Shown: piece after piece, positions 35,938 to 58,011 of the stretch
How the letters are laid out: each line of letters starts with the position of its first letter
Position numbering within the stretch: position 1 is the first letter of the stretch
From: a bacterium
GTDB lineage: Bacteria; Patescibacteriota; Minisyncoccia; Phycocordibacterales; Zambryskibacteraceae
Assembly: GCA_030649135.1 (NCBI GenBank)
Contig: JAUSGI010000005.1
Location: forward strand, 5,754 to 69,753
Length of the DNA: 64,000 nucleotides
Direction: 5' to 3'
Position numbers and translations under genes: made by a program
Notes under the pieces: model-generated
Seen by the model: only the letters and a program-made list of their open reading frames with translations
Databases searched by the model: none
What the model was told of the DNA's origin: nothing

Positions 35938-35966
35938 TTGACAAACAACTTTCTCATCAGCATAAT
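35938..35966 (+). promoter_or_regulatory. sigma70-like promoter TTGACA-17-CATAAT
   Basis: Followed by an about 75-nt leader, then an AAAGGA SD, then the ATG at 36041. Confidence 0.4.
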
Positions 35967-36040
35967 CCTAACAGACTGATGGAATGTGGATTAACCATAT
36001 TTCAGGACAGCTAAAAACACTAGAGAAAGGACCTCCCGCT

Positions 36041-36688
36041 ATGGGCACTCCCTTTACTCCTGGGCAGATGAGCAAGTTGCAGTCGATCATCAACATCGGA
36101 GTTGCCACGGCTCTACCAAGGCTAGCCGAGAAGTACGACCCCAAGGTTGTGCTCAAGGCACTTCAAGGTCGAGGCCAGATCTTCGCCGGACACCTTGGGA
36201 CAGCGCTCGAGCAGGCCATAAACATGATGCTTGTCCTGGAGCCTCGTGGTTCGACGACGGTCACGCTCACCGAGGAGCATGATCCAGTTGGGTTCTACTT
36301 GACTCGTTCTGGTCTCTACATCTGGGACGACTTCTGGACAGATGTCGTCCTTCGCGCTAAGCCGACCGTGGCTGGCACAACCTTCAGGGTTGAGAGCTAT
36401 GACATGATGCAGTGTGCGGCCGATAAGGTGATCGAGGGCGCCCTGCCCAAAGTTCATCTCTTCAACGAGACGGGTCTCTGCGCCATCGTGGCTGGTCTCA
36501 TCGCTCGTCAGCTGAAGGGAGAGAAGGGTGAGCTCGTGAACAACGGTTGCTCCAACCTCCTCTACCTTCACTCCTGCGTCGTCGACGTGTGCTGGAGTGT
36601 CGGCTTCCGCGAGTGGGACGTCCACGCGTGGCGGCGCGACGGCGTCGAGTGGGATGCTGGCGGTCGGGTGTTCTCCCCCGCCAACTAA
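36041..36688 (+). CDS. hypothetical protein, GC-rich cassette gene
   Basis: GC content clearly above the flanks. Own promoter and downstream hairpin. The ORF-track start at 35984 is less likely than 36041 (SD). Confidence 0.5.
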   Translation: MGTPFTPGQMSKLQSIINIGVATALPRLAEKYDPKVVLKALQGRGQIFAGHLGTALEQAINMMLVLEPRGSTTVTLTEEHDPVGFYLTRSGLYIWDDFWTDVVLRAKPTVAGTTFRVESYDMMQCAADKVIEGALPKVHLFNETGLCAIVAGLIARQLKGEKGELVNNGCSNLLYLHSCVVDVCWSVGFREWDVHAWRRDGVEWDAGGRVFSPAN

Positions 36689-36773
36689 CCTTCGGTTTCT
36701 TTTTCCTGCGAAGCATGACTCAACCCTTGGACCTGTGGCACTTTGTCACTCGGCCCAAGGGTTTTTCTTATGC

Positions 36774-37505
36774 TTAATTGAAATCTAGTAATAATGGTGA
36801 ATGGTCGGATACCTCATCTTTTAAAACCCCAAAATGATTTACTGTTATATCAGGGGACACCAATATATAGTCAGCAAATTTTTCTGGTTTTGTGTAAAAA
36901 CTTGTGCGCGTACTCCGGATATCATACTTCTTGACTAAATTGGTCATTCCTTTCTCTAGGATAGCCAAACTCTCTGTGTCTGGCCTTAAATTAAAGTCCC
37001 CGCATAGTATTTTGGGTGTGTTTAAAGTATCCATAAACTCCTTAATACGCTGGGACTGCGCTATGCGGTCTGGGGTGTCTGTTTTACCTCCCCCATTCCA
37101 TAATCCATGGACGTTTAATACTGAATACAACTTGTTATCCATGCGCATATCAATCCACTGCATGTTTCGAGAGTGGTGGCCAGTATTATTCGGGTATTTT
37201 GTGTTTGTGTGAATAATAATTTCTCCCTCCCCTAAAATATCAGTATCTTTGTGGATAAAAGCTCCGATTCCATAAACGTTCTCCACTACTGGTCTAAAGA
37301 ACATTTGGTGATTAGGTAAAAGTTTTTTTATTTCTGAACATATATTTTTGCCAACCCCGTCCTTTTGGTCGGCACTCAGTTTTTCTGTCATGCCCTCGTA
37401 TAATTCTTGAAAGCAAAAAATATCTACATCTTTATGATTTTTAATAAAATCTAAAAAAGGGTCTCTTACTATTGCGCCCCAGATGTTTAAACTAACTAAT
37501 CTCAT
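36774..37505 (-). CDS. endonuclease/exonuclease/phosphatase (EEP) family protein
   Basis: MRLVSLNIWG...FCFQE...SDHSPL pattern. Confidence 0.75.
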   Translation of the reverse strand: MRLVSLNIWGAIVRDPFLDFIKNHKDVDIFCFQELYEGMTEKLSADQKDGVGKNICSEIKKLLPNHQMFFRPVVENVYGIGAFIHKDTDILGEGEIIIHTNTKYPNNTGHHSRNMQWIDMRMDNKLYSVLNVHGLWNGGGKTDTPDRIAQSQRIKEFMDTLNTPKILCGDFNLRPDTESLAILEKGMTNLVKKYDIRSTRTSFYTKPEKFADYILVSPDITVNHFGVLKDEVSDHSPLLLDFN

Positions 37506-37510
37506 TTCTT

Positions 37511-38551
37511 TTATAAAAGTTTCTTTTGAAAATGGGCTGGGGGAGTTTTGCCGAGATGGGCATAAGCATGAGCGGTGAGAGCGCGGCCGCGCGCGGTGCG
37601 CTCGATGAGCCCGAGTTGCAAGAGATATGGCTCGTTAAACTCTTCGATAGTCGCTTCTTCTTCCGAGAGCGCGGCCGCTAAGGTCGAAAGGCCGACGGGG
37701 CCACCGGCAAATTTTTCGGCAATAACTTCAAGCAGGCTTCGGTCGGAAGGGGAAAGTCCTTTTGCGTCTACTCCCAAGAGTTTCAATGAAAGCTCAACCG
37801 CCTCTTGGTCCAACGCTCTATTCTCCACTTGGGCAAAGTCGCGGGCGCGTTTGAGAAGATAATTCGCCGTACGCGGAGTAAAGCGTGAACGCTTGGCAAT
37901 TTCTTTCCGGGCCACATCGTCTATCTTGACGCCAATAATTTTCGCCGACCGGCGCAAGATTTCCGCGATTTCGCCCTCGCTATAGAATTCCAGACGAAAC
38001 ACTCCGCCCGAGAAGCGCGAGCGCAGAGGCGAGGAAATCATCGCCACGCGGGTGGTGGCCGCAAGCAAAGTAAAAGGAGGCAGTTCTAGTTGAATAGTGC
38101 GGGCCGATGGCCCCTTACCGATGATGATGTCGAGTACGCCGGACTCCATGGCCGGGTAGAGGACTTCCTCAATGGTTTTATTCAGACGATGAATCTCATC
38201 TATGAAGAGAATATCGCCGGAGGTGAGATTGGTGAGAATAGAAGCAAGGTCCCCGACTCTCTCTATCGCAGGCCCTGAAGTAATCTTAATTGCTCGGCCT
38301 GTTTCCTTAGCCACCAAGTGCGCAAGAGTGGTCTTGCCTAGTCCCGGGGGACCATAAAACAAAACGTGTTCTGGGGGAACGCCACGTTCGGTGGCGGCCT
38401 GAATGAGAATTTTGAGGTTATCTTTGACTGCTTTCTGTCCAATATAGTCCTGCCAGCTTGAAGGTCTGAGCTCATTATCCAGAAACGAGGCGTATCCGCT
38501 CTCTTCCTTATCAACTTTTTCTTTCGGTGCTTTATTCTTTTGGCTTGACAT
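37511..38551 (-). CDS. ruvB: Holliday junction branch-migration ATPase RuvB
   Basis: Walker [12 protein letters not shown], Walker [11 protein letters not shown], sensor and C-terminal winged helix. Confidence 0.95.
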
Positions 38552-38807
38552 AAAAAATATTATGTGCTAGACTACAATCTGTTCTTACCCGCCTGCCGGC
38601 AGGCAGTTCCAGACCATAAATCTCTAAGCAACGTGCTCTTCGGGGTATTTGGACTTTTCTCTAAGGACGCTCTTGGTATCCTTGCCCCGCCTTGGCGGGG
38701 TGAAGGTTTCTGAGGCCATCCTTGAAAGATTCGTTTAGTCCCGCTTTGGCGGGATGTTGCTTGGAGATTTCTGTGCTGGATCTATGCCCTCTGTCTCTCT
38801 CTATTAT

Positions 38808-57088: not shown

Positions 57089-57092
57089 TACT

Positions 57093-57419
57093 ATGGAGAA
57101 CTCCCCAGCATCTCTAAAGAAGTCGAGTAGGAAGGCTAAAGGCGGCTTGTTTACTTTCGGTACCAGTCCGGAGGCCGATTGGAAGATTATTTTAATCTCG
57201 GCGATGATTCTTGCCGCCTCGGTTATCGCCCTTAGTGTTTTTATTTTTATAAAAGTTGGCAAGGGAGAAATCTTTGTGGCAGATATGCCTGAAGTGCAGA
57301 AAGAAAAAGCTCTAGATACCGCGCTTCTCAAAGAAACCGTTTTGTATTATCAAAATAAGGCGCTCGAGCTTGAGAAAATTAAGAGCACGAGAATCCCAAC
57401 TGCCGATCCTTCGTTATAG
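57093..57419 (+). CDS. hypothetical single-TM protein
   Basis: TM helix ILISAMILAASVIALSVFIFI. Confidence 0.4.
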   Translation: MENSPASLKKSSRKAKGGLFTFGTSPEADWKIILISAMILAASVIALSVFIFIKVGKGEIFVADMPEVQKEKALDTALLKETVLYYQNKALELEKIKSTRIPTADPSL

Positions 57420-57538
57420 GTGCGGTTTCAAGTTTTCTTCTCGACCTGAGTTTTATCGAAGGTTGGCGGCATTAAATCCAGGAATTCACGGAGTGAATAT
57501 CTAAATAATACAAGATTATGACAAAAATTTCAATTTTA

Positions 57539-57583
57539 GAAAAAAGCAGAGCCCCAAGCAGAATTGAATTCCGCAAGGGGCTC
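57539..57583 (-). terminator. rho-independent terminator (minus strand)
   Basis: On the minus strand, GAGCCCCttgcggaattcaattctgcttGGGGCTC followed by TGCTTTTTTCT. Confidence 0.6.
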
Positions 57584-57610
57584 GAGTACGAGCTGTTTTC
57601 GAAGAAGCCA

Positions 57611-57907
57611 TTACGACCTCTGCGAAGGCGCGACCTCTCTTCCACTGAACAGAATCACGACGCCGAGTACGAAACCGAAGTTGTACCAACCGCCGCTGTT
57701 ATGAACCTCATAGAAGCCCACATTGTTCGAGAAGAGCGAGATGACCAAAGTGATCGGCGCGATCATCCCATGCCATAGACCGAGCCAGAAGCCAGCGAGG
57801 CTCCCGTCCGAGGCAACGATATGCGCGGCGGTGTTGGGACCGGCGGCACAGCCCGTCAGGAACAGCGCGCTATAGAACAACATCCCGAGCAGGTGCGTTT
57901 TCTTCAT
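57611..57907 (-). CDS. small lipoprotein/membrane protein, GC-rich cassette gene
   Basis: MKKTHLLGMLFYSALFLTGC lipobox. AAGGAGG SD. Own promoter and terminator. Confidence 0.5.
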   Translation of the reverse strand: MKKTHLLGMLFYSALFLTGCAAGPNTAAHIVASDGSLAGFWLGLWHGMIAPITLVISLFSNNVGFYEVHNSGGWYNFGFVLGVVILFSGREVAPSQRS

Positions 57908-57982
57908 CGCCTTTTCCTCCTTAAGGTGCTATTCCGCGAAGCCCTCGCGGTGGGGATTTCGGATAACTCCGATTCTTAAACC

Positions 57983-58011
57983 AATATAGCATATATGGTC
58001 TTGGAAGTCAA
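57983..58011 (-). promoter_or_regulatory. sigma70-like promoter TTGACT-17-TATATT (minus strand)
   Basis: Followed by an about 70-nt leader containing the hairpin CCGCGAGGGCTTCGCGG. Confidence 0.45.

Follow-up and report, generated by a model that had tools for sequence, protein, structure and literature searches.

How does a small bacterial genome come to hold several GC-rich, self-contained genes scattered singly among its housekeeping genes? This question is raised by a 64-kb stretch of contig JAUSGI010000005.1 (the window, to whose positions all coordinates refer), which derives from a metagenome-assembled genome of Candidatus Zambryskibacteria (Parcubacteria, candidate phyla radiation (CPR); NCBI locus tags with the prefix Q7R69_). 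A first-pass annotation had listed five such units, here called C1 to C5, with a probable sixth near 4136-4521 (C6), and had read them as a dispersed family of promoter-leader-gene-terminator cassettes, either moron-like acquired genes or the products of a common mobilisation mechanism. Their neighbours are indeed housekeeping genes, including those for RuvC, YebC, RuvB, PilB, TsaE, PolA, a HolA-like protein, FolD, DoxX, RuvX, PilM/N and malic enzyme, as well as tRNA genes. Our analysis points to a different answer. The units are probably independent, insulated single-gene modules for small accessory or lineage-specific proteins, which have mixed histories and are not copies of one element. 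These histories would comprise one ancestral gene (C2), four gains (C1, C3, C4 and C5, with C1 being the target of a diversity-generating retroelement (DGR)) and one unplaced unit (C6).

The units stand out in base composition. The mean GC content of the window is 46.5%, and entire units exceed their 1-kb flanks by 5-17 percentage points. As background for the GC content at third codon positions (GC3), we used 58 non-overlapping genes of the window, which gave a value of 0.476 ± 0.068 and a maximum of 0.593. Every unit lies above this maximum (C1 0.73, C2 0.68, C3 0.64, C4 0.82, C5 0.76 and C6 0.69; z = 2.4 to 5.1), and outside a block at 1-2000 the C1-C6 genes are the only ones with a GC3 above 0.6. 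The GC profile thus bears out the compositional contrast described at first and supports the sixth unit; it also reveals that the listing was incomplete, as the block at 1-2000 (59% GC) had been left unmentioned. In C1, C2, C4 and C6 the codon positions follow the order GC3 > GC1 > GC2, the pattern expected of genuine coding frames, and in C3 and C5 GC3 is the highest of the three positions. The abrupt change of composition at the unit borders could also be produced by a chimeric assembly or by contaminating GC-rich DNA in the CPR bin. We give such an artefact hardly any credence, because an independent Logan assembly of SRR13727527 recovers C4 together with both flanking CPR genes, indicating that the units are not assembly chimeras, and likewise yields the junction 1711-2400. 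Moreover, the promoters of the units are of the lineage's own type, and homologues of C1 and C2 are similarly embedded in many independent assemblies.

The units are alike in architecture as well. Within 35-64 kb, the strongest promoter matches were those of C1 (11/12), C2 (11/12, extended -10), C4 (12/12) and C5 (10/12, extended -10), all in the correct placement and orientation at 32-75 nt 5' of the respective start codon; the probability of finding such a site by chance in at least four of five units is ~4e-7. The near-consensus sigma70 promoter, or at least strong Shine-Dalgarno (SD) sequence, that had been ascribed to each unit is therefore the best of the region in these four, the exception being C3, which has no convincing promoter and is positioned at the end of the TsaE-PolA-HolA operon. 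Over two scans, the top three terminator matches were those of C3, C2 and C4, and the terminator hairpins of C1, C5 and C6 could be read directly in the sequence, in line with the earlier statement that each unit has its own GC-hairpin intrinsic terminator. The 5' leaders of C1, C4 and C5 measure ~68-75 nt and match the 70-80 nt first noted for three units. Relatives have GC-rich genes of their own in other slots, with homologues undetected, and these genes carry a promoter of the form cTTGACTT..TGGTATTAT and a hairpin terminator. This common architecture characterizes autonomous monocistronic genes of the Zambryskibacteria lineage.

Such a common design, together with the common GC excess, might instead reflect a single population of mobile cassettes that share a dedicated mechanism, be it integron-like, transposon-like, resembling a miniature inverted-repeat transposable element (MITE) or retro-mobilised. 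Two further observations speak for this explanation, namely that the C1 family transfers as a complete unit among at least seven contexts and that a tyrosine recombinase gene (3181-4119) adjoins C6. We nevertheless consider it very unlikely. The proteins of C1-C5 are mutually unrelated, being alike only in their signal peptides, and the leaders and terminators differ in sequence, so that the term family does not apply to the cassettes as a whole. A repeat search of the whole window detected no repeat common to the units, and their borders carry neither target-site duplications nor terminal inverted repeats, the longest border repeats being 5-7 nt, which corresponds to the chance level. Comparing the empty C1 and C3 sites of a relative (L004) with the filled sites revealed no duplication either. 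Upon alignment, the leaders and flanks had nothing in common but the promoter hexamers, with no leader motif beyond these, and the leader folds are not exceptional in folding energy (z = -1.8 for the C1 leader). No Rfam family was found in C1-C5 at the gathering or E-value threshold, PADLOC and NCBIfam returned no match, and PHROG matched C5 only. The hallmarks of transposons, MITEs and insertion sequences (terminal inverted repeats plus target-site duplication) are thus absent. Like integron cassettes, the units are small, contain a single open reading frame (ORF), are diverse in function and have a hairpin-forming 3' element; unlike them, they possess their own promoters and are dispersed rather than arrayed, an IntI gene is absent, and no attC-like site shared by the units was seen among the inverted repeats, the attC covariance model not having been run. 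The recombinase encoded beside C6 resembles XerC/D, the conserved non-coding parts of C1 are confined to the C1 family, and C2, as described below, is vertically inherited. A common mobilisation mechanism accordingly finds no counterpart in repeats, duplications or leader motifs shared by the units, and independent modules remain the reading that we favour.

A uniform acquisition is contradicted by C2. We compared the slots of C1, C2 and C3 with those of 80 Zambryskibacteria/Parcubacteria genomes, whose PilB is 65-91% identical to that of the window (38808-40490). The order g48659-g46643-DoxX-(FolD)-HolA-PolA-TsaE-slot-PilB-RuvB-YebC-RuvC is kept across these relatives, and the slot between TsaE and PilB contains a GC-enriched ORF in most of them. 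An iterated hidden Markov model united C2 with the slot ORFs in 53 of the 72 relatives having both TsaE and PilB on the contig; in about 12 relatives the slot is empty. C2 encodes a lipoprotein of 135 amino acids (40600-41007, +) belonging to a conserved Zambryskibacteria family of small lipoproteins, in which the lipobox (L-x-[GA]-C ending the signal peptide, LMVGC in C2) and two cysteines are conserved. Its promoter (40532-40561, +; TTGACT-18-TATAAT plus TG, an extended -10) and intrinsic terminator (41015-41042, +), both detected by scanning, follow a design common to the relatives, where cTTGACTTt..TGGTATAAT and an equivalent of GGGCGGG..CCCGCCC-TTTT are kept. The divergence of C2 correlates with that of PilB (Spearman 0.48, Mantel p = 0.001), and with 19-39% identity where PilB shows 60-100%, C2 evolves far faster. 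Its GC3 is higher than that of PilB, PolA and RuvB in 47 of 49 genomes (mean +0.18, Wilcoxon p = 4e-14), and this enrichment spans housekeeping-gene GC contents of 32-54% (locus GC 31-52%; regression slope 0.38). By all these comparisons, C2 presents itself as an ancestral, vertically inherited, fast-evolving lipoprotein gene beside the pilus ATPase gene. The acquisition proposed for it had to be abandoned, as the gene occupies the orthologous position in relatives, the very observation that the first-pass annotation had named as decisive against it. Given that C2 is both syntenic and GC-enriched in 47 of 49 genomes, GC excess alone is no evidence of acquisition in this lineage; as C2 suggests, it can be a maintained, gene-intrinsic property.

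The other units behave differently in the comparison. No tblastn match to C1, C3, C4 or C5 was obtained in the relatives that cover the respective slot, that is, in the 80 genomes for C1 (searched with its corrected start, see below) and C3, and in 18 metagenome contigs with a PilM identity of 59-78% for C4 and C5. The slots themselves are cleanly closed or otherwise occupied. In L004, whose PilB is 87% identical, the distance from the YebC start to the stop of the EEP nuclease gene is 9 nt, compared to 891 nt in the window, and FolD and HolA overlap convergently, compared to a spacing of ~500 nt in the window. The C5 slot (g57093, tRNA-Arg gene, malic enzyme gene) measures 108-110 nt in three contigs (L098, L100 and L109), and the C4 slot (between g51178 and the DUF5652 gene) is reduced to 120 nt in L108. 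Elsewhere, the C4 and C5 slots are filled by unrelated genes of ordinary GC content, namely a short-chain dehydrogenase/reductase (SDR) gene with a cupin gene, a toxin-antitoxin pair and a recombinase gene. Beside C1, the low-GC (37%) EEP nuclease gene (36774-37505, -) occurs in just 2 of the 80 relatives, and FolD (44797-45627, -) is found at the same position in about 10 of the 80, so that exchange at these junctions extends to accessory genes whose GC content is ordinary or low. The junctions are thus variable slots, and the GC-rich units are some of their occupants. In this they resemble the genomic islets or variable intergenic hotspots of streamlined genomes, with differing accessory genes among relatives at RuvB/YebC, HolA/DoxX-FolD, g51178/DUF5652 and g57093/malic enzyme, the difference being that some occupants are GC-rich whereas the EEP nuclease, SDR/cupin and toxin-antitoxin genes are host-like or lower in GC.

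These presence-absence patterns also bear on the idea that all units are ancestral and GC-rich by selection, for example on expression or mRNA stability, their patchiness resulting from repeated loss in relatives. C2 exemplifies a stand-alone gene of high GC that is both ancient and vertical, the empty C2 slot of about 12 relatives shows that loss occurs, and the C1 family is GC-rich in all hosts, even next to an AT-rich reverse transcriptase remnant (L091, see below). However, none of the 80 relatives has C1 or C3, not even those whose PilB is 87-91% identical, and the junctions in L004 (9 nt and an overlap) are seamless. Searching 5.8e9 protein clusters yielded no homologue of C3 or C4, C1 homologues reside at other loci in other genomes, and C5 homologues are host-like in GC elsewhere. 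Universal ancestry is therefore unlikely, and gain of C1, C3, C4 and C5 within the lineage would account for the pattern, the junctions concerned being empty or otherwise occupied in relatives. The earlier description of single insertions between housekeeping genes can be upheld for C1, C3 and C5 with their precise junctions, and comparison of orthologous loci agrees with acquisition of these three and of C4; C2 does not fit, being ancestral rather than inserted.

The first of the gained units is C1. Its start codon, first placed at 35984, was corrected to 36041, giving an ORF of 215 codons (36041-36688, +) with 59% GC. Upstream lie a promoter with an 11/12 match (35938-35966, +; TTGACA-17-CATAAT) and a 5' leader (35973-36040, +), in which a conserved hairpin (CUGAUG...UCAG) precedes the stretch GGACAGCUAGAGAAAGGAC, likewise conserved and including the SD sequence. 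Downstream, a hairpin (36722-36763, +) with the apex UGACACUUUGUCA is followed by a T-run ending at 36768. Among six family members, the leader hairpin shows compensatory changes at three pairs; in the 3' hairpin, 3 of 16 pairs do so, and the apex has a single substitution across seven members. We identified 24 homologues with 47-65% identity; members of the family occupy at least seven different housekeeping contexts. The sites include SecY/Adk in the ribosomal operon, RNase J-like/LDcluster4, RecO/hypothetical gene, PilM/FtsA next to Adk, a position 5' of PilC, and DUF192/TPR. All copies are GC-rich relative to their flanks (GC3 0.67-0.85). Of the six other copies that we compared, five share TTGACA-17-TATAAT, a distance of 7-10 nt to the leader, and a leader composed of GAAGCUGAUGAG, the hairpin and UCAGGACAGCUAGAGAAAGGAC; in the remaining copy (L083) the -35 and the leader box are not clear, and the 3' hairpin is present in all seven. 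Promoter, leader and terminator hence accompany the family members to different contexts. The conserved CUGAUGAG box of the leader was also considered as a hammerhead core and rejected, as no GAAA follows stem II. At the site in the window, the 55 nt left of the C1 promoter appear to supply YebC with a leaderless-type promoter, the RuvB-EEP-YebC-RuvC operon being split by the insertion. Of relevance to these starts, TACAAT or TATAAG is found 6-8 nt before the PilB and YebC start codons, resembling a leaderless-mRNA promoter, and a CTAGCTTCTAGC-like motif recurs with these boxes (35883-35937 and 40491-40531, and upstream of PilB in L004-L007).

The C-terminus of the C1 protein links it to DGRs. 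In the last ~36 codons, invariant positions alternate with hypervariable ones, and the hypervariable codons differ at their first and second positions and have C or T at the third. Across the family, this NNC pattern is the variation limited to template adenines (AAC to NNC) that characterizes a DGR variable region, and it delimits the equivalent region of C1 (36578-36685, +). A complete DGR is present on an IMG/VR contig (L089, IMGVR_UViG_3300012942_000022, positions 2386-7498), adjoining an integrase gene and a RepO-like gene. It encodes two variable proteins, whose variable regions lie at 2717 and 5347, and further comprises the template repeat (6060-6162) and a reverse transcriptase gene (6476-7498). 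The two variable regions differ from the template at 20 and 14 adenines, respectively, and at 0 and 1 other positions. One of the variable proteins, VP2, shares 43% identity with C1, and the template AAC codons align to the hypervariable C1 codons. In a further locus (L091, 4017-4849), a DGR-type reverse transcriptase gene, broken into two ORFs and lacking ~52 central residues, lies directly 3' of a C1 homologue. This remnant is 60% identical to the reverse transcriptase of L089 and AT-rich, whereas the target gene has a GC3 of 0.85; a template repeat was not found in L091, and the locus looks like a decaying DGR that leaves its target gene intact.

We take C1, from this evidence, to be a member of a CPR DGR variable-protein family that moves as a complete transcription unit. 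It resembles DGR targets in its C-terminal variable region, in its NNC codons aligning with the AAC of a real template repeat, in the GC-rich inverted repeat downstream, and in having homologues that adjoin a DGR reverse transcriptase or its remnant. The fold prediction hints at a lectin-like structure; in DGR targets, the variable region is held by a C-type lectin (or Ig) fold. Foldseek returned no match to C1 in the PDB. The conserved 3' hairpin at 36722-36763 probably serves both as terminator and as the GC-rich inverted repeat 3' of the variable region. GC-rich inverted repeats downstream of variable regions, remote targets and abundant DGRs in CPR bacteria have been described (PMC5758913). 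C1 departs from the usual arrangement in that neither template repeat nor reverse transcriptase lies within 64 kb, and its family differs in bringing along its own promoter and 5' leader hairpin, both conserved, and in occurring singly in numerous housekeeping contexts. Specifically, blastn-short and an adenine-tolerant sliding scan found no template repeat in the window or in six homologous loci, and tblastn found no reverse transcriptase or Avd in the window, which makes C1 a remote or an orphan target. The family is relevant to the spread of DGR targets and to remote targeting in CPR bacteria: a DGR variable-protein family circulates in CPR genomes with conserved 5' and 3' RNA/DNA hairpins, often without an adjacent reverse transcriptase.

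The remaining units have fewer relatives or a simpler history. C3 is a GTG-initiated ORF of 126 codons (44377-44757, +) with the SD sequence GGGGGT and no convincing promoter of its own. It encodes a hotdog-fold thioesterase-like protein, which matched Pfam 4HBT_2 over residues 10-124 of 126 with E = 3.3e-5 and 24.8 bits, compared to a gathering cut-off of 25.5. The 3' arm of its terminator (44783-44810, +) encodes the last four codons (AAAR and stop) of the convergent FolD. C4 combines a perfect promoter match from the scan (53503-53530, +; TTGACA-16-TATAAT, 12/12) with an ORF of 226 codons (53612-54292, +; 65% GC) for a protein with two Cys4 zinc-ribbon-like modules, and a terminator with a 13-bp stem, also found by scanning (54305-54334, +). 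For both proteins, the search of the protein clusters retrieved only the query itself, and C4 was also without a match in IMG/VR. An AlphaFold2 model of the single C4 sequence was uninformative (mean predicted local distance difference test score of 37).

In contrast to this solitary pair, C5 belongs to a large family. Encoded on the minus strand, it comprises a promoter from the scan (57983-58011; TTGACT-17-TATATT plus TG, 10/12), an ORF of 98 codons for a small membrane lipoprotein (57611-57907) and a terminator, GAGCCCC...GGGGCUC followed by a U-run (57540-57583), which was read by eye because its loop of more than 8 nt lies beyond the range of the scan. The lipobox LTGC is kept in C5 homologues. 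The family of ~100-residue lipoproteins has 1355 cluster representatives, matches phrog_30702 and occurs in Patescibacteria, in a genome of 71% GC and in 24 IMG/VR contigs. Judged from these homologues, C5 seems to stem from a family of small lipoproteins that is exchanged widely and carried by phages, too. Since the family is host-like in GC in other genomes, the high GC content of C5 would seem to bear the signature of a donor. The sixth unit, C6 (4136-4521, +), has an imperfect promoter (TTGACT, spacer 19-20), the SD sequence AGGAG, an ORF at 4199/4205-4462 that probably starts at 4205, and a terminator at 4492-4521; no Pfam, PHROG or PADLOC match was obtained for it.

In view of the phage connections of C1 and C5, the units might also be true morons that stayed behind when a prophage decayed, as debris or cargo of GC-rich phages or integrative elements of CPR bacteria. 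Phage morons, a concept associated with Juhala and Hendrix, are lone extra genes with their own promoter and terminator, an atypical composition and a patchy distribution, relatives without the gene having a precise junction instead, and many of them encode small lipoproteins or membrane proteins. The units are alike in being single genes between conserved neighbours with signals of their own (save the C3 promoter), around what would be single non-essential genes, in their atypical GC and in their presence or absence among relatives, which applies to C1, C3, C4 and C5 and not to C2. They differ in residing in a bacterial chromosome rather than a phage or prophage, with RuvB, PilB, PolA, FolD, RuvX and the malic enzyme gene as neighbours, and C2 is ancestral and no add-on. 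A phage or element origin gains some plausibility from L089, where integrase, RepO-like gene, a complete DGR and a C1-like variable protein occur together and GC3 is 0.68-0.77 in the genes of the DGR and of replication (2.4-7.5 kb), from the match of C5 to a PHROG family and 24 viral contigs, and from the block at 1-2000, which holds hammerhead ribozymes, often phage-linked, near the recombinase gene. However, no phage structural or replication genes adjoin C1-C5, C1, C3 and C4 are unmatched in 50,697 phage records, the PHROG match is limited to C5, and C2 is vertically inherited. We therefore judge wholesale derivation from phages or integrative elements as rather improbable. What stands of the moron-like view are four genes absent in relatives; what falls is its extension to C2.

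Independent insulated modules would work as follows. A strong sigma70 promoter of the native type would free expression from gene position, with the exception of C3, which would ride on the end of the PolA-HolA operon, and a strong intrinsic terminator would halt read-through into housekeeping neighbours. Owing to its own promoter and terminator, a unit could sit harmlessly at a gene boundary, a phage moron logic operating in a bacterial chromosome. We infer that the gains occurred through ordinary horizontal transfer, with the incoming DNA joined between genes by illegitimate recombination. A plausible route would be natural transformation, given the presence of type IV pilus genes in the window, and C1 may plausibly have been left by the decay of a DGR-bearing integrative element. 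The GC excess would have two sources, namely donor composition for C5, and probably for C3 and C4, and a gene-intrinsic level maintained over time for the C1 and C2 families. Several points weigh against this picture. The promoters and terminators of the units are consensus matches, and gain rather than loss is a conclusion from parsimony. For C4 and C5, the slots were compared in no more than 18 contigs, with a PilM identity of 59-78%. C3 and C4 are putative proteins, which are supported by codon-position GC, SD sequence and terminator. With template repeat and reverse transcriptase absent from the 64 kb, C1 may be an inactive orphan. Finally, the ribosomal-protein genes of one CPR locus are shifted only mildly towards the high GC3 that the C1 and C2 families retain.

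The persistence of high GC3 in these two families leads to a broader, more tentative proposal. It is conceivable, though we would not yet count on it, that Zambryskibacteria, and perhaps CPR bacteria more widely, hold autonomous, strongly promoted small genes ~0.2 GC3 above background in the long term, across host GC contents of 31-54%. If so, this class would include the pilus-adjacent lipoprotein gene and lone DGR targets, gene-specific selection or a biased process would act on composition, and high GC would be the sign of a functional class instead of a foreign origin. In that case, the C1 family would represent a DGR target in the form of a self-contained, transferable transcription unit. 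In genome scans of the lineage, atypical GC combined with a promoter and terminator of the gene's own should not be taken as sufficient proof of horizontal acquisition. The gained units in turn suggest that accessory genes enter small CPR genomes as single, insulated genes at a small number of permissive junctions between housekeeping genes.

Several other features of the window deserve mention. The GC-rich block (1-2012, -; 59% GC) reads as a polycistron from TTGACA-17-TAAGAT with two type-III hammerhead motifs and three GC3-rich small ORFs. The motifs, at 380-434 (-) and 1546-1600 (-), are 1166 nt apart and score 42.7 and 30.7 bits, compared to an Rfam gathering threshold of 48.5; the core boxes are present in both, except for A9>U in the first copy. 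The ORFs between and after the hammerheads (GC3 0.70-0.83) encode a zinc-ribbon protein (1210-1043) and a lipoprotein (821-510), with the third running off the window. A 41-nt direct repeat (859-899 and 1232-1272, 90% identical), containing the palindrome GAGCGAA-N4-TTCGCTC, is located just 5' (in the minus sense) of each of two of these small ORFs and may be an operator or processing site. Next to the block, the segment 2153-2412 (+) contains a promoter (TTGACA..TATATA), ~225 ORF-free nt and a strong terminator at 2375-2405. Its minimum free energy of -94.9 kcal/mol (z = -5.2) marks it as a candidate small RNA, with the GC-rich block on one side and a TrmB-like regulator gene on the other. 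A second candidate, an unnamed non-coding RNA, lies at 38545-38800 (+) between the minus-strand genes for RuvB and PilB. Here, the conserved promoter TTGACAtaaaaaRtattatgTGcTAGACT is followed by a putative structured RNA of ~200 nt, which is kept in seven relatives and masked as N in an eighth (L007), and which has a closing helix of ~23 bp, compensatory changes at 10 of 54 pairs, including those of inner hairpins, and no Rfam match. The palindrome GTCGACTCCGGGAGTCGAC occurs three times (11217-11237, 11421-11441 and 11890-11910) in and around a gene at 11267-11920. Lastly, the tRNA-Arg gene at 49554-49628 has the anticodon GCG, which is uncommon in bacteria.

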